Shown piece by piece: positions 5,105-57,042 of a stretch of DNA of 64,000 bases. Position 1 is the first letter of the stretch. Each line of letters starts with the position of its first letter. The DNA is from Holophagales bacterium (lineage in GTDB: Bacteria; Acidobacteriota; Thermoanaerobaculia; Multivoradales; Multivoraceae), in assembly GCA_009837885.1 (NCBI GenBank), contig VXSP01000014.1, positions 31,498 to 95,497 on the forward strand. The letters run 5' to 3'. A program made the position numbers and the translations under genes. The notes under the pieces are model-generated. The model had not been told where the DNA came from, did no database searches, and worked only from the letters and a program-made list of their open reading frames with translations.

Positions 5105-6202
5105 TCAGAGCGGCCGCCCCGGCGCCGCCACGAAGACATCCCCCTCGCCTTCTTCATTCACGGTGAAGATCCGGTCGAGCCGGCGCACGGTGGCGCCGGC
5201 GTCGAAGTCCAGGCACAGGTCCGCGCCGTCCAGCATGCCTGTGGCGCCCTCGGCGCTGTCCGCGAACAGGACGGCCCAACGGTCGCCGACGTGAACGAGA
5301 TCACCCGGCGCCGGCGAGCCTTCACCGGCGGCGCTCCACGCGGTGCTGCCGTCGAGCGGCGCGAGTTCCCAGGTCAGGTCCTCCCAGGCGACGCCGCCCG
5401 CGGCGAGAATGTCCCGCAGCACGGAGACCTGGCTGAATGCGAGGCGGTCGTCGTAGAGCTGCTGCAGCCGGGCTACGGCTGAAGCCTCCCACCCGTCCCC
5501 TTGCCGGTGGATGCCGGGCAGACCGAAGACCGCCGATGGGGTACCCAGCGCGCCCGGCAGCCGTGCCTCGAGCCGGGTGGCGTCGGGGGGAACGGGGGAT
5601 CTGACGCGCTGATCCGGGACCAGCGCGTCCTCGTCGAGCGCCGCCTCGACCCAGACCTGGTAGCGGAGGGTGCCGAAATCCCGGTCGATGTCGGGACCGT
5701 CCTTCTCGAGCCAACCGTCGAAGTGGGCGTCGAGCGTGCCGTCGATCGACCAGGCGCTGCCCCACTCCGGGCGGAAGAAGGGCTCGTAGGCGAAGCGCTC
5801 GACGTCGGCGCCGTCCTCCAGCTCCCGGAAAGGAACGCCGTGTTCGACGCTGAACCAGAGCATTCGTACCCAGCCCAGCCCGCCGATCCGTTCCGGCGGA
5901 AGGGCCTCGACCCGGCGGCCGTCGATCTCGACCTGGGGAACGGCGCTGTAGTAGACGGGTTCGCCTGGTTCGTCGCCGCGCGGCTCCGTCGCGAGAATCG
6001 CGTGCAAGCGGAAACCCTGACCAGCGAGCATCTCGATGTCGCCCGTCCGCGCCACGCCATCGCCACCTACCTCGATGCCAACCCAGGCGGCGGACAGGGT
6101 CGGCGCACGCAGCCGCTCCGCTCGCGGCAGGAACCAGAGGACCGCCGCCGCCACCGCGACGATCACGCCGATGATCAGGAACAGCAGGCGATTCCCTTGC
6201 AC
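5105..6202 (-). CDS. Hypothetical membrane-anchored protein (single N-terminal TM helix, acidic, Trp-rich extracytoplasmic domain)
   Basis: 365-aa ORF with strong GC3 codon bias and a hydrophobic N-terminus LLFLIIGVIVAVAAAVLWFL; no family recognised. Confidence 0.6.
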   Translation of the reverse strand: MQGNRLLFLIIGVIVAVAAAVLWFLPRAERLRAPTLSAAWVGIEVGGDGVARTGDIEMLAGQGFRLHAILATEPRGDEPGEPVYYSAVPQVEIDGRRVEALPPERIGGLGWVRMLWFSVEHGVPFRELEDGADVERFAYEPFFRPEWGSAWSIDGTLDAHFDGWLEKDGPDIDRDFGTLRYQVWVEAALDEDALVPDQRVRSPVPPDATRLEARLPGALGTPSAVFGLPGIHRQGDGWEASAVARLQQLYDDRLAFSQVSVLRDILAAGGVAWEDLTWELAPLDGSTAWSAAGEGSPAPGDLVHVGDRWAVLFADSAEGATGMLDGADLCLDFDAGATVRRLDRIFTVNEEGEGDVFVAAPGRPL

Positions 6203-6211
6203 GCGACGATC

Positions 6212-6883: not shown

Positions 6884-7227
6884 CGGTCGCGACGCTCCTC
6901 GATACGAGCGGCGCGGCCGCGCAGCTTCCGCAGGTAGTAGAGCTTCGCCCGACGCACCTTGCCGCGGCGAACGACCTCGATCTGGCCGATCACCGGCGAA
7001 TGGAGCGGGAAGATGCGCTCGACACCGATTCCGCCCGAGACCTTGCGCACAGTGAAGGTCTCCCGGGTGCCGCTGCCCCGCCGGGCGATCACCACGCCCT
7101 GGAAGATCTGGATGCGCTCCTTGGCGCCCTCCCGAACGCGGACGTGGACCTTGACCGTGTCTCCGGCCCGGAAATCCGGCAGGCCATCCCGCACGTACTC
7201 CTGCTCAACCTGCTGTAGATCGTGCAT
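6880..7227 (-). CDS. rplS: 50S ribosomal protein L19
   Basis: [51 protein letters not shown]... 115 aa, highly conserved L19 sequence, inside the spurious 215-aa track ORF. Confidence 0.95.
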
Positions 7228-7273
7228 TGCGTGTCCCTCCGAGCCGCCCAACCCCCAAGCGGCAGGAGGCGGA

Positions 7274-7996
7274 TTATCGCCTGTTCGATGCCTTCGGCGC
7301 AACCTCTCGACCGCGCGCGTCTCCAGCCAGCAGGTCCGGCCGCTTGCGGCGCGTCGCTTCGAGCGCCTGCTCACGCCGCCAGACGTCGATGCGCGCATGG
7401 TCGCCCGATCGCAGCACGTCCGGCACCTCGATCCCCTCGACGGTCCGCGGGCGGGTGTAGTGCGGGTGGTCGAGCAGCCCCGAGCGGAAGCTCTCGTTCT
7501 CGACCGATTCCGGCCGGCCGACCACACCCGGGATGTGCCGCGACACCGCCTCGATGACCGTCATGGCCGGCACTTCGCCGCCGGAGAGAACGTAGTCCCC
7601 GATCGACATCTCGGAGTCGACGACCAGCATCCGCACCCGCTCGTCGATCGCCTCGTAGCGTCCGCACAGGAGCATCAGCCGCTCCTCGCCCGCCAGGCTG
7701 CGCACCCTGGCGTCGTCCAGACGCTCACCCTGCGGCGAGAGCAGGATGCGGTGAGGCTGCGGGCCGTCGCCCGAAACCGCGCGCACCGCACGGAGCCAGG
7801 GAGGCGCCGTCATCACCATGCCGCCGCCACCGCCGTACGGCTCGTCGTCGACGCTCCGGTGCGGATCCTCCGTGTACTCGCGCAGGTCGTGGACGTGAAC
7901 CTCGAGCAGCCCGGCGGCGACCGCCCGCCCGATCAGGCTCGCCCCCAGGAACTCCCGGAAGACGGCCGGGAAGATCGTTATGACGTCGATCCGCAT
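7274..7996 (-). CDS. trmD: tRNA (guanine37-N1)-methyltransferase
   Basis: [10 protein letters not shown]...YGGGGGMVM...[13 protein letters not shown], the TrmD signature. Confidence 0.95.
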
Positions 7997-8502
7997 GCCT
8001 CGAGCAGTCCCTCCGGCAGGTCGCTCACAATCAGGCCTTCGCCGATGTCGATCTCCGGCAGCAGCGCGTTGGCGAACGGAACCAGCACGGACCTGCCATC
8101 GCCCTCGGGCGCCGCGACCTCGAGCAGGACGCCGCCGCCATCCTCCACCACGCTGGTGACCTCGCCGAGTTCTCCGAGCCTCCGGTCGACGACGCGGCAG
8201 CCGACGAGCTGGAAGTAGTAGAACGTGCCGTCCTCAGCCGCCGGCACCTGGTCCTCCGGCACCTCGAGCAGGGCGCCGCGGAGTTCCTCCGCGCCGTTGC
8301 GGTCCGTCACGTCCGCGAAGCGGACCAGTTGCCTGCCCCGATGCGGCCGGCTCGTCGCCACCTCCAGTTGCCGGACCCGGCCCCCGACGTCGGCGAGCAA
8401 CCTGGAGCCCATCCGGAATCTCTCGGGATTCTCGCTGTCCGCGTCGATCAGCACCTCGCCCCGCAACCCGTGGGCGCGCAGGACGGCGCCGACCGTGACC
8501 AT
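7978..8502 (-). CDS. rimM: Ribosome maturation factor RimM
   Basis: MVTVGAVLRAHGLRGEV... PRC-barrel C-terminus; overlaps the trmD start in the conserved rpsP-rimM-trmD-rplS order. Internal ATG at 8502 chosen over the track start at 8556. Confidence 0.9.
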   Translation of the reverse strand: MVTVGAVLRAHGLRGEVLIDADSENPERFRMGSRLLADVGGRVRQLEVATSRPHRGRQLVRFADVTDRNGAEELRGALLEVPEDQVPAAEDGTFYYFQLVGCRVVDRRLGELGEVTSVVEDGGGVLLEVAAPEGDGRSVLVPFANALLPEIDIGEGLIVSDLPEGLLEACGSTS

Positions 8503-21215: not shown

Positions 21216-23612
21216 ATGGCCCAGAACCCGGTAGACGAGCAGGCGGACGCGATCTCGCTGCCCGACGTCCTGCCGGTGTTGCCGCTCAAGGACGCGGTCA
21301 TCTTCCCCTACATCATCCTGCCGCTCTCGATCAGTCGCGACCCGAGCATGCTCGCGGTCGAGGACGCGCTGAACGGCGACCGCATCATCCTGCTCGCCCC
21401 CCAGCGCGACGGATCGATCGAGGCGCCGGCGGAGGACGACCTCCACGAGATCGGCACAGCGGCCCAGATCATGCGGATGCTGAAGCTGCCCGACGGCCGG
21501 GTGCGGATCCTGATCCAGGGTCTCGCCAGGGCTCGCCTGCGCTACCTGAGCCAGACCGAGCCCTTCCTTCGCGCCCGCGTCGAAGAGGTGGACGAGGCCG
21601 GCGAACCTCACCACGGACTCGAGGCGGAGGCGCTCGTGCGCAGCGTCAAGGAGGGTCTCGAAACCGCCGTCAACCTGGGCAAGGACATCTCCTCCGAGGT
21701 CATGATGATCGCCGCGAATCTCGATCATCCAGGCCGGCTGGCGGACCTGGCCGCCAGCAACCTCGACCTGCGGGCGGACGAGGCCCAGCTCGTGCTGGAG
21801 ACGACGACGCCCATACCGCGGCTGCGGAAGGTGGGCGACCTGCTGACCCGGGAGATCGAACTCCTCAGCATGCAGCAGCGGATCTCCGCCCAGGCCCGGA
21901 GCGAGATGGACCGCAGCCAGCGCGAGTACTTTCTTCGCCAGCAGCAGCGCGCGATCCTGGACGAACTCGGCGAAGGCGACGATCTCCACGGCGACATCGA
22001 ACGGTACGTGAGCGCCGTCGAGGAGAAGGGCCTGAGCGAGGAGGCGGCGGCGGAAGTTGAACGACAGGTCAGGCGGCTCGAGCGAAGCTCTCCCGACAGC
22101 GCCGAGAACGCGACGATCCGCACCCACCTGGACTGGTTGACCGGCCTCCCGTGGTCGACCCTGAGCGAGGATCGAATCGACCTCGACCGGGCCCGCACCG
22201 TGCTCGATGAAGACCACTACGACCTGGACCGGGTCAAGGAGCGGATCCTCGAGTACCTGGCGGTCCGACGGCTCAAGCCGGACGCCAAGGGTCCGATCCT
22301 CTGCCTGGTCGGCCCCCCGGGGGTCGGCAAAACGTCGCTCGGCCGTTCCATCGCGCGCGCAATCGATCGCAAGTTCGTCCGCATTTCGCTCGGCGGCGTC
22401 CGCGACGAGGGAGAGATCCGCGGCCACCGGCGCACCTACGTCGGTTCGTTGCCGGGTCGCGTCATCCAGGGCCTGAATCAGGCCGGCACCAGCAATCCCG
22501 TCTTCATGCTCGACGAAATCGACAAACTGGGCGCCGACTACCGGGGCGATCCGGCTTCCGCGCTGCTGGAAGTGCTGGATCCCGAACAGAACTCGACCTT
22601 CAGGGACCACTACCTGGGAGTCGAGTACGACCTTTCGCGCGTGTTGTTCATCGCCACGGCCAATCTGCTCGAACCCATTCAGCCCGCTTTCCTCGACCGT
22701 CTCGAGGTGCTGCGACTCTCCGGCTACACCGAAGACGAGAAAGTACTGATCGCGCGCCGCCACCTGTTGCCAAAAGCCACGGACGAGAACGGCCTGCCGG
22801 CCGGCGCCCTGACCATCACGACCCCCGCGCTCCGCGGCCTCATTCGCGGCTACACCAAGGAAGCCGGCGTGCGCAATCTCGAACGCGAACTCGCAACTCT
22901 CTGCCGGAAGGCGGCCGTGCGAGTGGCACGGGGAGACGGCCGGGAACTGAAAGTAACGCCGGCCCGATTGAAGAAGCTGGTCGGGCAACCGCGTCACTTC
23001 AGCGAGGAACTGCTCGACCGCGACCGGATCGGCGTGGCTACCGGACTCGCCTGGACCGCAGCCGGCGGCGACCTCATGCTGATCGAAGTCGCGGCGCCGA
23101 AGGGCAGAGGCAAACTGATCCTCACCGGTCAACTCGGCGACGTCATGAAGGAGTCGGCACAGGCCGCGCTGAGCTGCGCCCGCACGACCTACGCCGGGGC
23201 TCCGGGAGCGGGAGGGCCCGATTTCTTCCGTAACCACGACCTCCACATTCATGTCCCCGCCGGTTCCGTACCGAAGGACGGTCCGTCGGCGGGCGTCACG
23301 ATTGCCGCCGCCATCGTCTCCGTCTGCAGCGGGCGCATGATCGATCACAAGGTCGCGATGACCGGCGAGATCACGCTGCGCGGCGAAGTGCTTCCCGTCG
23401 GCGGTCTCAAGGAGAAGCTGCTCGCCGCGCGCGGAGCCGGTATTCGCAAGGTCGTCCTCCCGGAACGAAACCGGCGGGATCTTCCGGAGATACCGGCCGC
23501 GGTGACGCGAGGTCTTGAACTCCTGTTCGTCGAACATGTCGATCAGGTCCTCGAAGCCGCGTTGCTCGACCCGGAGCACCAGCGGTCATGGCCGGCGGCG
23601 AAGACCGGCTGA
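21216..23612 (+). CDS. lon: ATP-dependent protease Lon (endopeptidase La)
   Basis: LON N-domain, GPPGVGKTS Walker A, PKDGPSAG catalytic Ser and KxxAA Lys motifs. Confidence 0.95.
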
Positions 23613-24577
23613 TCGCCTGGCTCGCGGGCTTCGCGGGCTCCGGAGATCGAATCGGCGACGACGCCGTCCTGCTCACGCTCGGCCAACGGCAGTACGCGTT
23701 CAGCGTCGACACACAGCGCGCCGGCGTCCACATTCCGATCGATTTCGATCCCGCCGACGCCGCCCGCCGGCTGCTTGCCGTCAGCCTCTCGGATCTCGCC
23801 GCCAGCGGGGCCTCGCCGCGGTGGATGCTCGTCGCACTCGGCATCGACGATGAGGAGGCCGCCCGCCGTTTCCTCGCTGCCCTCGTGCGCGCCGGCCGCC
23901 GGTACGAAGTCGAACTCATCGGCGGCGACACCGCCAGGCCGACGACGCCCGGCCGGCTGGACGCCAGCCTGACCGTCATCGGCGAGATACCGGAAGACGG
24001 CTCGCCTCTGACCCGCGACGCGGCTCGACCCGACGACCGGCTCTGGATCGGCGGACCGGTCGGAGAGTCCGCCCTGGGCCTCGACCTCGTCCGCCTCGGC
24101 GGGCGGATGGCGAGACGGCGCGCCAACCTGCCCGAGGGGCTTCCCGACGGGCTGACCCGTGTCGCCAGCCGGGTCCTTCGCCGCCACCTCGAACCCCGGC
24201 CCCAGCTCGGGCTGGGCCTGCTGCTCGGGCGGCGGTCGCCGGCGGGTGCCGCGATCGACGTGTCCGACGGCCTGGCCGCCGACGCGGCGCGGCTCTGCCG
24301 GCGGAGCAGCGTCGGCTGTGAACTCGAGGAAGGCGCTCTTGCCCTCCGGGCCGACGCCCGCCGCCTGGCCGTCCACCTGCGCCGCGAGCCGCTCGAACTG
24401 GTTCTCGCCGGGGGCGAGGACTACGTTCTTCTGTTCACCCTGCCGCCGGACGCCGACTTCCGGCATCCCGGGTGCCGGCCCATTGGCCGGATCACGACCC
24501 GGCCCGGGCTGCGTTTACGCCGAACCCACGGGACGATCGAACCGCTGCCCGCCGGCGGCTGGGACCACCTGGGCTAG
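23588..24577 (+). CDS. thiL: Thiamine-monophosphate kinase
   Basis: AIR synthase-related fold; GDDAV..., IGGDT motifs typical of ThiL; overlaps the lon 3' end. Confidence 0.85.
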   Translation: MAGGEDRLIAWLAGFAGSGDRIGDDAVLLTLGQRQYAFSVDTQRAGVHIPIDFDPADAARRLLAVSLSDLAASGASPRWMLVALGIDDEEAARRFLAALVRAGRRYEVELIGGDTARPTTPGRLDASLTVIGEIPEDGSPLTRDAARPDDRLWIGGPVGESALGLDLVRLGGRMARRRANLPEGLPDGLTRVASRVLRRHLEPRPQLGLGLLLGRRSPAGAAIDVSDGLAADAARLCRRSSVGCELEEGALALRADARRLAVHLRREPLELVLAGGEDYVLLFTLPPDADFRHPGCRPIGRITTRPGLRLRRTHGTIEPLPAGGWDHLG

Positions 24578-36599: not shown

Positions 36600-37226
36600 T
36601 CAACGGCTCTTCAGCAGGTCCAGGAACTCCTCCCGAATCGGGCGTTCGTGGAAGATGCCGCGAAGCGCCGACGTCACCGTCCGTGCCCCCGACTTCTCCA
36701 CCCCGCGCATCTCCACGCAGAGATGCCGGGCCTCGATCACGACCATCGCGCCGCGGGGTCGGAGTTCCTCTTCGAAGAAACTCACGACCTGCTCGGTGAG
36801 GCGCTCCTGGAGTTGTGGCCGCTTGGCGTAGAACTCGAGGATGCGCGCGAACTTGGACAGGCCCAGGATCTTGTCGCCGGGGACGTAGGCGATGTGGGCG
36901 TGACCGTAGAAGGGCACCAGATGGTGCGAACACATGGAGTAGAACGGGATGTCCTTCTCCATCACCATGGCCCGGTAGTTCTCGTCGTTGGGGAAGGTCG
37001 TGACCCTCGGCTTGGTGCCCTGATCCAGGCCCCGGAACATCTCCAGGTACATCTTGGCGACCCGCTCGTGCGTGGTCTTCAGATTCGGGTCCTCCAGGTC
37101 GAGACCGAGCTCGACCAGCAGCCTTCGCACCAGCTCCGCGAGGCGAGCCACCCGCTCCCGGTCCCGAACCGCCGGCGGACCGTCTTCGTAGGTCGAAACC
37201 CGCTCGACCGGTTCCAGAACGCGCAT
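36600..37226 (-). CDS. folE: GTP cyclohydrolase I
   Basis: YSMCSHHLVPFYGHAHIAYVP, VVIEARHLCVEMRGV, the FolE signature. Confidence 0.9.
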   Translation of the reverse strand: MRVLEPVERVSTYEDGPPAVRDRERVARLAELVRRLLVELGLDLEDPNLKTTHERVAKMYLEMFRGLDQGTKPRVTTFPNDENYRAMVMEKDIPFYSMCSHHLVPFYGHAHIAYVPGDKILGLSKFARILEFYAKRPQLQERLTEQVVSFFEEELRPRGAMVVIEARHLCVEMRGVEKSGARTVTSALRGIFHERPIREEFLDLLKSR

Positions 37227-37282
37227 CGGCGCATGCTACCGTAGTCGCCCGCGGTCAGAAACAACGACGAGGACGGAGTCCG

Positions 37283-37510
37283 ATGAGCCGAGTGACGATC
37301 GAATACTGCGTAATGTGAAACTACCGGCCCCGAGCCGCCGGTCTGGCGGCTCAGTTGAAGGAGCAGTTCGACCTCGACACCGAACTCGTGGACGGCGGCG
37401 GCGGCGTCTTCGAGGTCGCCCTCGACGGCCGCCCCGTCTTCTCCAAGAAAGAGCTCGGTCGCTTCCCCGACAACGGCGAAGTCGAGCACGCCGTCGCCGA
37501 GTTGCTGTAG
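37283..37510 (+). CDS. selW: SelW-like / Rdx-family selenoprotein with in-frame UGA (Sec) at 37316-37318
   Basis: Not in the ORF track. ATG 37283 with GGAG 5 nt upstream; reads MSRVTIEYCVM-U-NYRPRAAGLAAQLKEQFDLDTELVDGGGGVFEVALDGRPVFSKKELGRFPDNGEVEHAVAELL. C-x-x-U redox motif and GGGGVFEV / FSKKE.GRFP blocks are Rdx/SelW hallmarks; TGA sits exactly where Sec lies in this family. Confidence 0.75.
37332..37352 (+). ncRNA. SECIS-like hairpin 14 nt downstream of the selW UGA (cis mRNA element)
   Basis: GAGCCGCC-GGUCU-GGCGGCUC: 8-bp stem, 5-nt apical loop containing GGUC, loop ~22-26 nt after the UGA, matching the bacterial SECIS geometry bound by SelB. Confidence 0.55.
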
Positions 37511-37552
37511 CGGCGCGTTGCTGCAGCGGCGCGTTGCTGTAGCGCCGCGCCG
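37502..37552 (+). repeat. Three tandem 16-bp repeats (GTTGCTGTAGCGGCGC variants) immediately 3' of selW; the first unit supplies the selW TAG stop
   Basis: gttgctgtagcggcgc / gttgctgcagcggcgc / gttgctgtagcgccgcg seen directly. Part of the extended arm of MITE-like element A; a single homologous unit encodes the C-terminal QLVQRRR of rlmD at element B. Confidence 0.7.
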
Positions 37553-37597
37553 CGCGGCGGAGCAGCGGAGCGGCGGAGGTAGTACCCGTCCGCTGGA

Positions 37598-37758
37598 GGC
37601 GTTCCGGGGGAGGGTTCCCAGCGGCCGCTCGCGCAACCTCGGTTGTGGGAAAGACGGCGCTCGCTTCGGTCGGCTGCGCTTCACATCGGCGTCAGTAACT
37701 GAACCGGCGGAGGGAGTCACTTGCCTCCAGCCCGCTGGGAACCCTCCCCCGGAACGCC
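37598..37758. mobile_element. MITE-like element A: 161 bp with perfect 27-bp terminal inverted repeats (GGCGTTCCGGGGGAGGGTTCCCAGCGG)
   Basis: Left end 37598-37624 is the exact reverse complement of right end 37732-37758. Interior shares GCGCTCGCTTCGGTCGGCT and CACTTGCCTCCAGC blocks with element B. Conserved flanks extend ~20-30 bp on each side, so the full unit is ~210-220 bp. Confidence 0.7.
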
Positions 37759-37923
37759 GGGCGGACTGGTCGTCGTTGCAGGCCGGTCGCGAAGCCACAC
37801 ACTGGGTGCGCCGGCGTCCTCGCCGGCTTTCGGGCGACGTCGCGAAGGGGCGTCGCACGTAGGGAATGGGTGAGGCCGGAGGCCTCGCGCTCACGGGCGG
37901 TCACAGAACGCTACGATCGGGGC

Positions 37924-38412
37924 GTGTCCGGCACCTACTCACTACGCCTCGGCAAGGAGGACTTCAAGTTCTCGGCGGCGCACTTCACGGTGTTCTCGGA
38001 GGACGAGGCGGAGGCTCTTCACGGACACAACTACCGGGTGCGCGTGGAACTGGGCGGTCCAGGGGTGGACGAGTTGGAGTTCCTCGTGCCGGTCGCCGCG
38101 GCGAAGCGGGACATCCGGTCGCAATGCGCGGAGCTCGACGAGAAGGTCCTGCTGCCCGAGGAGTGCCCGCATCTGGAGCTGACTCGATCCGGCGAGACCG
38201 TAACTACCCGGTTCGGAACGCGGCGGTACGAGTTCCCGTCATCGGAGGTCGTCCTCCTGCCGGTAGCGAACGTGACCGTCGAGGCGCTGGCCCGGCTGCT
38301 CTGGGAACGCCTGGCGGACCGATGGGGCTCTCTCCGCGACCGAGTGAAAACGCTCGAAGTCATCGTGGCCGAAACCCGGGGCCAGGGCGCCAGCTACCGG
38401 CGCAAACTCTAG
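37924..38412 (+). CDS. 6-pyruvoyl-tetrahydropterin synthase family protein (PTPS/QueD fold)
   Basis: VSGTYSLRLGKEDFKFSAAHF...LHGHNYRVRVEL (HGH zinc motif) ...EC.HLE. GTG at 37924 preferred over the track ATG at 37870. No Cys four residues before HGH, so probably not a canonical QueD. Confidence 0.8.
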   Translation: MSGTYSLRLGKEDFKFSAAHFTVFSEDEAEALHGHNYRVRVELGGPGVDELEFLVPVAAAKRDIRSQCAELDEKVLLPEECPHLELTRSGETVTTRFGTRRYEFPSSEVVLLPVANVTVEALARLLWERLADRWGSLRDRVKTLEVIVAETRGQGASYRRKL

Positions 38413-38422
38413 GAGCATCGCC

Positions 38423-38857
38423 TTGAAGACGCAGTTCGATCCCGACGACAGCCAGGCGGCGACCCTCCGCGGACTCGATCCCGACGCCCCGGTTGCCGCG
38501 CTCAACCTCTTCCAGTTCAACGACCGCGCCCGGTACGCACCCGGCGACGAGGAGTACGGAACCGAGGAAGCCGAAGTCTCCGGTCAGGAGGCCTTCCAGC
38601 GATACGCAGCCTCCGCGGGACAGGTCCTTGCCGACCTGGGAGGCCACGTTGCGTTCACCACGATGGTGGATCACGTGATGATCGGGCCTTCGGACCCGGC
38701 CTGGCACGTCGCGGCGATCATGGTCTTCCCTTCCCGGCGGGCCTTCATCGAGATGACGATGAACCCCGAGTTCCAGGCCGCCTCCCGCCACCGGAAGGCC
38801 GGCCTGGCGAACCACTACCAGGTGCACCTGAACGGCGCGCCCTGGGTGGAGGGGTAG
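38423..38857 (+). CDS. DUF1330-family protein
   Basis: 144 aa; C-terminal region (VAAIMVFPSRRAFIEMTMNPEFQAASRHRKAG) resembles the DUF1330/dimeric alpha-beta-barrel family as recalled. Confidence 0.7.
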   Translation: MKTQFDPDDSQAATLRGLDPDAPVAALNLFQFNDRARYAPGDEEYGTEEAEVSGQEAFQRYAASAGQVLADLGGHVAFTTMVDHVMIGPSDPAWHVAAIMVFPSRRAFIEMTMNPEFQAASRHRKAGLANHYQVHLNGAPWVEG

Positions 38858-38970
38858 TCAGCTCCCGCTTCCCTCCTTCGGGCGAGGCCCCATCGTTGCA
38901 AGCGAGGGCCTGCCAAGAGGACCGGCACTCCACGCCGTGCCGCAAACGCCGACAACGACCAGTCCGCGGC

Positions 38971-39131
38971 GGCGTCCGGAGGGGAGGGTCCCAGCGGGCT
39001 GGAGGCAAGTGTCTCCCCGGATCGTCACCCCAACCATCATCGAACCGCAGCGAAGCCGACCGAAGCGAGCGCAATCTCCCCCACCACCAGGAAAGCGTGA
39101 GCGGCCGCTGGGACCCTCCCCTCCGGACGCC
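38971..39131. mobile_element. MITE-like element B: 161 bp, perfect 27-bp TIRs (GGCGTCCGGAGGGGAGGGTCCCAGCGG), inverted relative to element A
   Basis: 38971-38997 is the exact reverse complement of 39105-39131. The TIR differs from A at several positions, each change mirrored in both arms. Interior is the reverse complement of A's interior with divergence. Right flank continues into the last codons of rlmD (ends 39146). Confidence 0.7.
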
Positions 39132-39145
39132 GCCCCGGACGGGTA

Positions 39146-40570
39146 TCACCGCCGCCGCTGCACCAACTGCGCGACAGTTTCGAGGTGGGCGGTCTGGGGG
39201 AAGACATCGAAGAAGGAGATGGACTCGAGGTCGAAGTCGCGGGTCAGGTCGCCAAGGTCGCGGGCGAGGGTGGCGGGGTCGCAGGAGACGTAGGTCAGGC
39301 GGCGGGGCGCGGCGTTGAGGAGGGCGCTGCGGACCTTTCGCGCCAGGCCGCCGCGGGGCGGATCGACCAGCACCCGGTCGAGGCCGGATTCCAGACCCGG
39401 GCCGCCGCGCCTCCGGTCGATCCAGCTATCGACCGCCGACCGCTCGACGCGGCAGTGGCGGAGACCGTTGCGGCGCAGGTTGTTCCGCGCGTAGCGGGCG
39501 GCGACCGACTCGCCTTCCACGGCCGTGACGGACCGGTAGCGATCGGCGAGACCGACGGTGAAGAAGCCGACGCCGGCGTAGAGCTCCGCGGCGGCCTCGC
39601 CCTCGAAGGGTCCGACCGCCGACAACAGAAGCGACTCCAGGAGCCCGCCGTGCGCCTGGAAGAAGCAGCGGGCGTCGTAGCTGAGCCGTTTCCCCAGAAG
39701 ATCGATCTCGAGTTCTCCGCCCGGCAACCCGTCGACGGGCGGCGCCGCCACCACCGGACTGTCCGGCTCCAGACCCGCCGTCGCCAGGCTGAGGCGGCTC
39801 GGCGGTTTCCTGGAAGCAGCAGCCCGGTCGACCAGCAGCAAAGACAGACCGCGCAGCTCATTCTCGAGCGCCGGAGCGAGCACCGGACAGCGGTCGACGA
39901 GGACCAGGTCGCGGCTGCGACGGCGCCGGAAGCCAACGCCGACCGGCTCCTCCGCACCCGGCTGGCGCGTCCCCGCGTCAGCCGCGTCACAGTCCGAGCG
40001 CCCGTCTTCGGGCGGTCGGATGTCGCGCGGGGCAACATGAACCTGTGCCCGCAGCCGATAGCCCCAGGCCCTCTCGCTCACCGGCTCCTCGAAGCGGCAC
40101 GCGGCGAGCTGGGCCGGGTCGATACCGCCCAGCCGGCGCAACGTCTCCATGGCCGCCGCCACCTTGAGGCCCAACTGCTCCGCGTCCTCGATGTGCTGGA
40201 GCTGGCAGCCGCCGCAACGCTCGTAGAACGGACATGGCGCTTCTCGCCGTAGCGGCCCCGGCGTTTTCACCTCTTCGATCTCCGCGCGGGCGTAGCTCGG
40301 GCGACGCTCGGTGATCCTGGCCTCCACCACGTCGCCGGGGGCGGCGCGCGGCACGAACACCGGCATGCCGCGCCACCGCGCCAGGCCGTCGCCGCCGAGC
40401 ACGATCTTCTCGATGGTCAGCTCCAGGCGATTGATGCCGGCCAGTGCCGCCAACGCTTCCAGGCGCTCGGCCGACAGCGGCTGCTTCCTGGGACTCGCTT
40501 CACCGCCGCCAAAGCCGTCGCGGACGCCGTGTTTGGCCCCAGCCCCCACCTCGCTAGCACCCTGCGCCAC
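39146..40570 (-). CDS. rlmD: 23S rRNA (uracil-C5)-methyltransferase RlmD/RumA family (TRAM + Fe-S + SAM-MTase)
   Basis: TRAM domain (LELTIEKIVLGGDGLARWRGMPVFVPRAAPGDVVEARI), cysteine cluster CPFYERCGGCQLQH, C-terminal DPPRGG...YVSCDPATLARD MTase motifs. N-terminal start not verified. Confidence 0.85.
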   Translation of the reverse strand: MAQGASEVGAGAKHGVRDGFGGGEASPRKQPLSAERLEALAALAGINRLELTIEKIVLGGDGLARWRGMPVFVPRAAPGDVVEARITERRPSYARAEIEEVKTPGPLRREAPCPFYERCGGCQLQHIEDAEQLGLKVAAAMETLRRLGGIDPAQLAACRFEEPVSERAWGYRLRAQVHVAPRDIRPPEDGRSDCDAADAGTRQPGAEEPVGVGFRRRRSRDLVLVDRCPVLAPALENELRGLSLLLVDRAAASRKPPSRLSLATAGLEPDSPVVAAPPVDGLPGGELEIDLLGKRLSYDARCFFQAHGGLLESLLLSAVGPFEGEAAAELYAGVGFFTVGLADRYRSVTAVEGESVAARYARNNLRRNGLRHCRVERSAVDSWIDRRRGGPGLESGLDRVLVDPPRGGLARKVRSALLNAAPRRLTYVSCDPATLARDLGDLTRDFDLESISFFDVFPQTAHLETVAQLVQRRR

Positions 40571-40890: not shown

Positions 40891-41442
40891 TCAGCCGGAC
40901 GTGACGGCGAGCGCTTCCTCGATCGCGTTGCGGATCACGGTGGCACCGGTGATGCCGATCGAGATGTAGGAAACGTCGCCCCGAGGGTCCAGCACGACGA
41001 GCGTCGGCAAGGCGTAGAGCTCCGCCGCCCCCATCACCTCCTCCTCGGGGTCGAGCAGCACCGGGTAGCTGAACGGTGTCTTCTCGACGTATCCGCGGAC
41101 TGTCTCCGGATCCTCCCCGGAATTCAAGGCCAGGAACGACACTCCCCGGCCGGCGTACTCCTCGCGCAGCTTCTCGAGGATCTCCGCCTGGTAGACGCAG
41201 GGCTTGCACCACGTCGCCCACATGTCGACCACGACGACATCGCCCCGCAGGTCCGGCGGCCCCAGCCGCGACCCGTCCAGCGTGTCCAACTGGAAGCTGG
41301 TCAGGATCGGATCGAGTTCCGCGATCTCCGGCGGCTCGGCACCCGCGACGATGCCCGACACCAGGAAACCGAAAACCGTAACCAGGACCGCTCCGGCCAC
41401 GCCCAGGCCGATCAGCAGACCGACCGCCAAACGCCTTGTCAT
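40891..41442 (-). CDS. TlpA/ResA-family thiol-disulfide oxidoreductase (membrane-anchored thioredoxin fold)
   Basis: N-terminal TM, WATWCKPC active site. Confidence 0.85.
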   Translation of the reverse strand: MTRRLAVGLLIGLGVAGAVLVTVFGFLVSGIVAGAEPPEIAELDPILTSFQLDTLDGSRLGPPDLRGDVVVVDMWATWCKPCVYQAEILEKLREEYAGRGVSFLALNSGEDPETVRGYVEKTPFSYPVLLDPEEEVMGAAELYALPTLVVLDPRGDVSYISIGITGATVIRNAIEEALAVTSG

Positions 41443-41601
41443 GCCGGCAGACTAACAGTGGAGGTGCGCGTCGCGCCGAGAGCGGTCAGGCGCCCGCCCA
41501 GCAAAGCGCGACGAGGGAGCACATAGTGGGCCGTATTGCGAAGCAATCGAAGCTGGTCACGCCGAGCGAGGAGCAACGACGCTGGGCATGGCCGCTCTCG
41601 G

Positions 41602-55939: not shown

Positions 55940-56689
55940 CTACCGATGCTGGTGCGCCTGGAGTTCGTGGCGGTAGTCGCCGACGGCGTCGATGAGGATC
56001 GGCTTCGCCATCTGGTGGAGGCGGCTGATCAGGCTGGCGGGAACGCGGCCGACCAGGGTCTGGGCGCCGTCGCTGAGGTCGCCGTCGGCTTCGGAGGTCA
56101 GGTAGTAGTTGCTGGTGAACAGGGTCGGCCGGCGGGCCATGTAGCGGCCGTTGATCAGCAGGTACAGGGTGTCGGAGACGAAGGCCGAGGGCCGCCGCGC
56201 GCCGAGCTCGTCGACGACGACGACGTCCGCCTCCTGGAGCGGCCGCAGCAGGTCGGTCTGGTTGCGCGGAGCGTCGGGCTGGAAGGTCGCCTGAATGTCG
56301 GCGACCAGGCCGGTGAAGTCGACGAAACGACCCTGGACGCCGTACTGCTCGGCCAGTTCGATCAGCACGGCCACGGCAAGGTGCGTCTTGCCCCGGCCGC
56401 TCGGACCGATGAACACGAGTCCGGCTTCGTTCAGCGATCCGTCGAGTTCCATGAACTCCTCGATGTACTGGTCGCAATCGCGCCGCGCGGTGAGGAGTTG
56501 ATCGCCCACGTCTCCCGCGAGCCGGAAGTTGGTGAGCCGGCAACCCTGGTACTTGGGCGGAATGCCCAGGTCGTCGACGCGGCGGCCGCGGACGCGGGTC
56601 GAGTGGCAGGTGCAGCGTCGCGCCCGGTTCGTCGCGAGGTCGACGATCCAACCGCGCCCGCCACAGAGTTCGCAGCCTTCCTCGTTCAC
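55940..56689 (-). CDS. DnaC/IstB-like AAA+ ATPase with N-terminal C4 zinc finger (helicase-loader-like)
   Basis: CELCGGRGW...CTCH zinc finger; GPSGRGKTHLAVAV Walker A; VVVDELG Walker B; 4-nt overlap with the hspR stop. Confidence 0.8.
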   Translation of the reverse strand: MNEEGCELCGGRGWIVDLATNRARRCTCHSTRVRGRRVDDLGIPPKYQGCRLTNFRLAGDVGDQLLTARRDCDQYIEEFMELDGSLNEAGLVFIGPSGRGKTHLAVAVLIELAEQYGVQGRFVDFTGLVADIQATFQPDAPRNQTDLLRPLQEADVVVVDELGARRPSAFVSDTLYLLINGRYMARRPTLFTSNYYLTSEADGDLSDGAQTLVGRVPASLISRLHQMAKPILIDAVGDYRHELQAHQHR

Positions 56690-57042
56690 TCCTCGTCCTC
56701 GACCTTGACCAGCGCGCCGCTTCGCACCCAGACCAGGGCGTGCCGGCGCCGGACACCCCGGCGGCGGTCCGCCGCGTCGCGTTCAACGATCGAGAGTAGC
56801 TTGTCGCGCTCGGCCTCGAGCCGCGCCAGCCGTTCCTGCAGCGTGAGGATGACCTCGACTCCGGCCAGGTTGACCCCCATGTCCCGGGTCAGCGTGAGAA
56901 TCGACTCGAGCCGGTTCAGGGAGTCTTCGTCGTAGAGGCGGGTGTTGCCGTCGCTCCGCCGCGGCTCCAGCAGGCCCTCACGCTCGTACAGCCGGAGTGT
57001 CTGCGGATGGATGTCATAGCGCTCGGCGACCTTGCTGATCAT
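56686..57042 (-). CDS. hspR: MerR-family heat-shock transcriptional repressor HspR
   Basis: MISKVAERYDIHPQTLRLYEREGLLEPRRSDGNTRLY, a MerR HTH; immediately downstream of dnaK. ATG at 57042 chosen over the track start at 57117. Confidence 0.85.
   Translation of the reverse strand: MISKVAERYDIHPQTLRLYEREGLLEPRRSDGNTRLYDEDSLNRLESILTLTRDMGVNLAGVEVILTLQERLARLEAERDKLLSIVERDAADRRRGVRRRHALVWVRSGALVKVEDEE

Follow-up and report, generated by a model that had tools for sequence, protein, structure and literature searches.

A probable selenoprotein gene of the SelW-like family, with an in-frame UGA and a conserved SECIS-like hairpin, curtailed in public gene calls of Thermoanaerobaculia

The stretch of DNA analysed here, referred to as the window, is 64 kb long. 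Its plus strand contains a 75-codon reading frame that runs from an ATG at position 37283 to a TAG stop at 37508–37510 and includes a single in-frame TGA, which forms codon 12 (37316–37318). Translation of this SelW-like coding sequence (37283–37510) through the TGA gives the conceptual product MSRVTIEYCVM-U-NYRPRAAGLAAQLKEQFDLDTELVDGGGGVFEVALDGRPVFSKKELGRFPDNGEVEHAVAELL. The putative redox motif C-V-M-U is encoded by nucleotides 37307–37318, with Cys9 specified by a TGC codon at 37307–37309 and the candidate selenocysteine, Sec12, by the TGA. Our re-reading of the sequence produced a frame and translation identical to those of the original prediction, which had placed the start at 37283 and U at position 12 of 75 codons. 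The GGAG that had been noted upstream of the start codon, a Shine–Dalgarno-like (SD-like) sequence, is present at 37275–37278 on the plus strand, but its spacer to the ATG is 4 nt long and not 5 nt.

The gene is divergent from folE, which encodes GTP cyclohydrolase I on the minus strand (36600–37226), and the two are separated by a 56-nt intergenic region. The adjacency to folE is kept in relatives in which the other neighbours are rearranged, as a comparison of loci L001 and L002 shows, and the gene neighbourhood on the L002 contig is identical to that of the window. Downstream lie a PTPS/QueD-like gene (37870–38412), a DUF1330 gene (38423–38857), a gene for a TRAM/tRNA-U5-methyltransferase protein (39146–40570, minus strand), a thioredoxin-like gene with an ordinary CxxC motif of the sequence WCKPC (40891–41451, minus strand) and, further on, a class II ribonucleotide reductase gene. 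The scan of the window with Pfam and NCBIfam models found housekeeping genes only, including alaS, ffh, lon, dnaK, dnaJ, grpE, hrcA, carAB, aroA and others. Promoter and terminator consensus sequences were searched for between 37150 and 37650, and none were found.

The GC content of the region is 68%, and the long overlapping open reading frames (ORFs) in its other frames are the usual artefacts of high-GC DNA. In the frame of the SelW-like gene, the standard ORF list contains only a curtailed 51-residue ORF that starts with TTG at 37355 and covers 37355–37510 on the plus strand. Such mechanical calling therefore misses or shortens the full gene, as had been claimed for the six-frame track, and gene callers report the 51-residue ORF in its place because the in-frame UGA makes gene finders clip the protein. 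The called genes in loci L001–L004 correspond to this ORF. A protein search returned about fourteen clusters (at 90% identity) with a length of exactly 51 residues and sequence identities of 80–98%, which represent shortened gene calls. The same search also found full-length relatives of 73–101 residues, about 55–65% identical, in which the selenocysteine column is occupied by C, W or G.

The product belongs to the Rdx/SelW family, as originally predicted. In profile searches, which were run with U written as C, it matched the Pfam Rdx model (PF10262) with an E-value of 1.8e-19 and a score of 70.1 bits (cut-off 22.6). The alignment covers residues 3–71 of the product and positions 1–72 of the 74 positions of the profile, and thus runs across the UGA. 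The product also scored above the cut-offs of the NCBIfam models NF041051, named 'SelT/SelW/SelH family (seleno)protein' (95 bits, cut-off 88), and TIGR02174, CXXU_selWTH (62.4 bits, cut-off 34.2). Rdx proteins with solved structures (3DEX, 2FA8, 2OJL, 2OKA, 2OBK and 2P0G) and human MIEN1 (2LJK) align with the product from residue 3, with E-values from 2e-9 to 7e-6 over residues 3–74. The CxxC motifs of the solved proteins fall over C9...U12. Within I-E-Y-C9-V-M-U12, the CxxU column matches the CxxC of cysteine-form homologs, and the motif is positioned directly after the first β-strand. The TGA thus occupies the U of C-x-x-U, where the original prediction had placed it. Homology to the solved Rdx structures (E = 2e-9) supports a thioredoxin-like fold for the predicted product.

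The scan of GTDB species-representative genomes resulted in 80 loci, and 85 homologous genes were read at the DNA level. The codon that corresponds to Sec12 is TGA in 84 of the 85 genes and TGC in the remaining one. The sequences IEYC before the TGA and NYxPRAAGLA after it are conserved in the same frame in these genes, which come from many phyla. The orthologs therefore carry TGA with conserved coding on both sides and not a genuine stop. The loci closest to that of the window belong to Acidobacteriota/Thermoanaerobaculia, many of them labelled 'Candidatus Multivorans', and the isolate and sample labels suggest that they originate from sponges. Within the Thermoanaerobaculia/'Ca. Multivorans' clade, about 36 species-level genomes carry the TGA form. 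Hosts from other phyla include Gemmatimonadota, Planctomycetota, Fibrobacterota, Bacteroidota, Ignavibacteria, Denitrovibrio and others, and the TGA form is also present in a Chondromyces-labelled metagenome-assembled genome (MAG) and in a Rhodospirillales MAG.

In the homologs overall, a start codon preceded by an SD-like sequence is located 8–12 codons before the TGA. All loci of the close clade have their ATG exactly 11 codons ahead of the TGA, and the purine-rich sequence GGACGGA(A/G) precedes this ATG in most of the 'Ca. Multivorans' loci, with some exceptions. In more distant genes, the ATG is shifted by one or two codons and often follows GGAGG.

The lone TGC gene (L056) adjoins a second paralog that contains TGA, and other cysteine-form homologs exist as well. 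Several distant genomes have a cysteine-form Rdx gene with the motif CVxC-NY in tandem with a TGA paralog of a different subtype, CGM-U-GY (L056, 1534 and 1875; L087, 100 and 374; L088, 270 and 605). The arrangement suggests that these tandem genes are duplicated selenocysteine/cysteine pairs. A scan of the window for further in-frame TGA codons flanked on each side by coding signal found neighbouring genes in the same frame only, and no second selenoprotein candidate. The thioredoxin-like gene at 40891–41451 gave a faint match to a WAxxUGC model and was rejected as a selenoprotein, since its motif is the ordinary WCKPC.

A SECIS-like hairpin is located 3' of the UGA, at 37332–37352 of the plus strand. 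It has the sequence GAGCCGCC-GGUCU-GGCGGCUC, in which the arms 37332–37339 and 37345–37352 form eight perfect pairs and enclose the apical loop 37340–37344. The stem begins at the 14th nucleotide past the UGA, after a 13-nt spacer, so the stem, loop and distance of the original prediction agree with our coordinates. The UGA-to-loop distance is 21 nt, and the range in the bSECISearch model is 16–37 nt. The hairpin is seen in both the minimum-free-energy and the centroid folds, with a folding energy of −19.9 kcal/mol and a z-score of −1.0; 31 of 200 shuffled sequences fold equally well. In DNA with a GC content of 68%, the hairpin alone is thus no more than composition would give, and the evidence that it exceeds chance comes from comparative data and not from the single sequence. 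The Rfam search of the whole window at gathering thresholds found no match to a SECIS family. When the region 37250–37560 was searched at E ≤ 10, there was again no SECIS match, and the sub-threshold hits were chance miRNA matches to the GC-rich repeat that follows the gene.

The hairpin is found at the same position in all homologs. Its outermost G-C pair is confined to the close clade, and the core shared across phyla has seven base pairs (37333–37351). Covariation was counted in 74 sequences aligned without gaps, and the controls were 500 shuffles and pairing registers slid by 1–3 nt. For the hairpin, 85.2% of cells are paired compared with 78.7% in shuffles, none of which (0/500) reached the observed values, and the slid registers gave 21–53%. 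Changes on both sides of the pair, which are compensatory, were observed in six of the eight hairpin pairs. Three of the pairs consist of third codon positions only, joining R with A, A with A and A with L, and all three show compensatory changes. Pair 24–42 occurs as AU (24 sequences), GC (14), GU (4), CG (3), UA (2) and UG (1); pair 27–39 as CG (54), UG (4), GC (3) and UA (3); and pair 30–36 as CG (63), AU (1) and GC (1). Many of these compensatory counts are clade-wide and correspond to few independent events. The RNAalifold consensus was a 4-bp alternative register lacking covariation. It was set aside in favour of the 8-bp helix because of the explicit pair counts and the slid controls.

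The stem-loop overlies the codons R-A-A-G-L-A-A-Q. First and second positions of alanine codons make up four of the six core pairs, which are thus fixed by the amino-acid sequence. From the codon frequencies of the window, we estimate that the remaining two core pairs would form by chance in about 20% of cases. The hairpin is weak (−7 to −9 kcal/mol) in two of four distinct cysteine-form genes, carries a U-to-C change in its loop in a third and is nearly intact in the fourth. Cysteine-form homologs in loci L085 and L087 retain a similar hairpin, which indicates that the structure partly follows from the AAGLA protein motif. The entropy of third codon positions is 0.20–0.74 bits within the stem and loop, compared with 1.1–1.8 bits at flanking four-fold degenerate sites. 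The G at loop position 2 is invariant in 75 of 75 distinct sequences. The U at loop position 3 is the wobble base of a glycine codon and is T in 68 of the 75 sequences at the DNA level, whereas GGT accounts for 14.8% of the glycine codons in the genes of the window. The codons that form the A-U pair, CGA and GCT, have shares of 16% and 11% in the window genes. The GU of the loop is kept at a synonymous site despite codon bias. The covariation supports maintenance of the hairpin by selection beyond the coding constraint, with the caveat that the independent events are few. Its position, loop and covariation, with compensatory changes in the conserved structure, fit the putative bacterial SECIS of the original prediction.

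G23 and U24 in the loop of the fdhF SECIS contact SelB. In the hairpin described here, the loop G and U are the most conserved positions. The SECIS of Escherichia coli fdhF (NC_000913.3) has an identical apical sequence, GGUCUG, and both elements lie within the coding region 3' of the UGA, with the apical sequence read in frame as Gly-Leu. The loop is 21 nt past the UGA in the SelW-like gene and 18 nt past it in fdhF. The helix of the SelW-like gene is a perfect, GC-rich 8-bp helix and lacks an equivalent of the bulged U found in the minihelix of fdhF, and the lower stem differs.

Decoding of the UGA as selenocysteine requires the products of selA, selB, selC and selD. None of these genes was found in the 64-kb window or in the 378 kb of loci that were searched; the genome is about 4.5–5 Mb in size. 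ARAGORN detected no tRNA-Sec in the window, which contains no tRNA gene at all, nor in 47 related loci. No selA, selB or selD emerged when nearly all ORFs of appreciable size in the window were scanned with Pfam and NCBIfam models, and tblastn searches with E. coli SelA, SelB and SelD had no matches in the 378 kb of loci. A gene with an AIRS domain at 23519–24577 on the plus strand was considered as selD and rejected, since it is thiL: it scored 211 bits with TIGR01379 and 27 bits with TIGR00476, the cut-off of which is 125. The selenocysteine machinery of the host genome is therefore inferred. Selenoproteins have been described in Acidobacteria (PMC1794560). Genes for SelA and SelB are enriched in sponge symbionts (PMC5649159), and COGs for SelA and SelB occur in sponge-symbiont bins, both Acidobacteria bins among them, while the count of SelD (COG0709) is zero in both of these incomplete Acidobacteria bins (PMC5649159, Table S4). 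Together with the upkeep of the TGA in about 36 species-level genomes of the clade, these reports suggest that selA, selB, selC and selD are encoded elsewhere in the genome. A lineage that had none of the canonical SelA, SelB, SelC and SelD yet kept the UGA and the hairpin in dozens of species is very improbable; if it did exist, the UGA described here would be recoded by another mechanism.

Based on the reading frame, its homologs and the hairpin, a decoding mechanism can be proposed. The sequence at 37283–37510 is very probably a genuine selenocysteine-encoding SelW-like gene with the active site Cys9-Val-Met-Sec12. Translation would start at 37283, and the UGA at 37316 would not be read as a stop. 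The GU-containing apical loop, GGUCU, may recruit SelB-GTP-Sec-tRNA(Sec), so that selenocysteine would be delivered to the A site and selenium inserted at residue 12. The ribosome would then continue to the TAG at 37508. The product is predicted to be a small thiol/selenol oxidoreductase with a thioredoxin fold, which would cycle between a reduced form with Cys-SH and Sec-SeH and an oxidized form with a Cys9-Sec12 selenenylsulfide. Cellular thiols, for example glutathione or thioredoxin, may recycle the protein.

The UGA might be read through without selenocysteine, by a near-cognate or suppressor tRNA that inserts tryptophan, cysteine or glycine, in which case the hairpin would slow the ribosome or be a by-product of the A-A-G-L-A-A sequence. 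The failure to find selenocysteine machinery in the window and the 378 kb of loci is compatible with such read-through, as are the partial dependence of the hairpin on the protein motif and its survival in some cysteine forms. Several homologs in databases are moreover translated with W (P0003, P0010, P0021, P0026 and P0027) or G (P0024) at the codon. The W of P0003 is nevertheless TGA in the DNA (L089, 1034), and the call was therefore made under genetic code 4. The remaining W entries and the G entry are presumably artefacts of the same type, from code 4 or code 25. The main stop codon in the window is TGA, which ends 25 of the 35 domain-supported genes. The genetic code is thus not reassigned, and the UGA at 37316 needs site-specific recoding. 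The GU of the loop, held at a synonymous site against the codon bias, equals the SelB-binding loop of fdhF, and the UGA is positioned at the selenocysteine/cysteine site of a family documented as selenoproteins. Read-through with another amino acid is therefore improbable.

Two explanations that deny the UGA a coding role are less probable still. The TGA could be a true stop, with the 51-residue protein from the TTG at 37355 as the functional product and the eleven upstream codons as a leader ORF or an untranslated sequence. The 51-residue form is what all databases hold, and even alone it passes the threshold of the Pfam Rdx model (2.9e-08, 34 bits). It is without the first β-strand and the CxxU/CxxC active site, however, both of which are present in all solved Rdx proteins. 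Across phyla, both IEYCxx and the NYxPRAAGLA segment that separates the TGA from the TTG show protein-level conservation in the same frame, the ATG and SD-like sequence are conserved eleven codons upstream, and close relatives (L007, L008, L030, L036 and L040) have CTG in place of the TTG. A true stop is accordingly very unlikely. The gene could also be a pseudogene, or its TGA the result of a sequencing or assembly error in a cysteine codon, since TGA differs by one base from TGC and TGT and cysteine-form homologs exist. However, 84 independent assemblies share this TGA, among them complete chromosomes from long reads, and there is no other disruption of the frame. The comparison of these assemblies effectively refutes a pseudogene or an error. 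Decoding of the UGA as selenocysteine is thus the reading that we prefer.

SelW-like CxxU selenoproteins were reportedly described in the Sargasso Sea, in the Global Ocean Sampling (GOS) data and in complete genomes by Zhang, Gladyshev and co-workers between 2005 and 2008. In the Sargasso Sea, 48 SelW-like CxxU genes with a bacterial SECIS were described in 2005 (PMC1088965). No other prokaryotic selenoprotein family is as abundant in marine metagenomes, and the GOS data contain 427 selenocysteine and 56 cysteine forms (PMC2398784). Selenocysteine is thought to be ancestral in the SelW-like family (PMC1794560), and the 84:1 ratio of our set is in line with this. The gene described here shares with the bacterial SelW-like CxxU selenoproteins (PF10262/TIGR02174/NF041051) the length class of about 75–85 residues, the N-terminal CxxU, and the downstream GGxFEV and FSKKxxGRFP blocks. 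In both, the UGA is followed by a stem-loop in the coding region with a G in a small apical loop, and selenocysteine forms prevail over cysteine forms, at 84:1 in our set and 427:56 in GOS. Nothing substantive differs; the host in the present case is sponge-associated Thermoanaerobaculia ('Ca. Multivorans'), for which the public calls are of 51 residues only. The solved cysteine-form Rdx proteins (3DEX, SAV_2001; 2FA8, Atu0228; 2OBK; 2P0G and others), eukaryotic SelW and MIEN1 are homologous over residues 3–74 and have the motif at the same position. The solved cysteine forms have CxxC instead of CxxU, contain 100–117 residues with additional residues at the C-terminus, and need no recoding. 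In eukaryotic SelW, the SECIS is located in the 3' UTR (PMC1088965).

The gene is a mis-annotated new member of the known SelW-like family, for which NCBI already has dedicated models, and current understanding is unchanged by the finding. In our literature search, no paper dealt with selenoproteins in Thermoanaerobaculia or mentioned 'Ca. Multivorans' by name. The value of the finding lies mainly in annotation, since public sets hold a 51-residue fragment that lacks the active site in sponge-associated Thermoanaerobaculia and, in some other lineages, a protein with W or G in place of selenocysteine. Correct annotation would add one more selenoprotein per genome and predicts both selenocysteine machinery and a need for selenium. 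Such machinery would agree with the published finding that SelA and SelB are enriched among sponge symbionts (PMC5649159). The locus also provides a case in which one 21-nt stretch has two roles, as part of helix 1 (R-A-A-G-L-A-A) and as a putative SECIS hairpin, with a visible constraint on codon choice.

Several other features of the window were observed. Two ORFs, at 5105–6211 on the minus strand (369 codons) and 6941–8218 on the plus strand (426 codons), have coding-like GC3 and no Pfam or NCBIfam match. The ORF at 55940–56782 on the minus strand contains an IstB_IS21-like ATPase domain (PF01695, 2.8e-12) and could belong to an IS21-type element or encode a DnaC-like helper. Closer to the SelW-like gene, three direct repeats with a spacing of 16 nt (CGSCGMGTTGCTGYAGCGSCGCG) overlap and follow its TAG stop at 37495–37560. 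In the computed fold of 37490–37600 they form a long GC-rich hairpin (−64.7 kcal/mol, z-score −1.4) with no T-run, and may represent a structure at the end of the transcript. Further downstream, the pair of PTPS and DUF1330 genes is flanked by two related palindromic elements of about 160–190 nt in opposite orientation. The arms of the element at 37598–37758 are 27 nt long and 100% complementary, those of the element at 38958–39144 are 40 nt long and 95% complementary, and in both elements the arms are 107 nt apart. A search of the 64 kb with the arm sequence, allowing up to three mismatches, matched only both arms of the palindrome at 37598–37758. The palindromic elements look like MITE or REP-type repeats.
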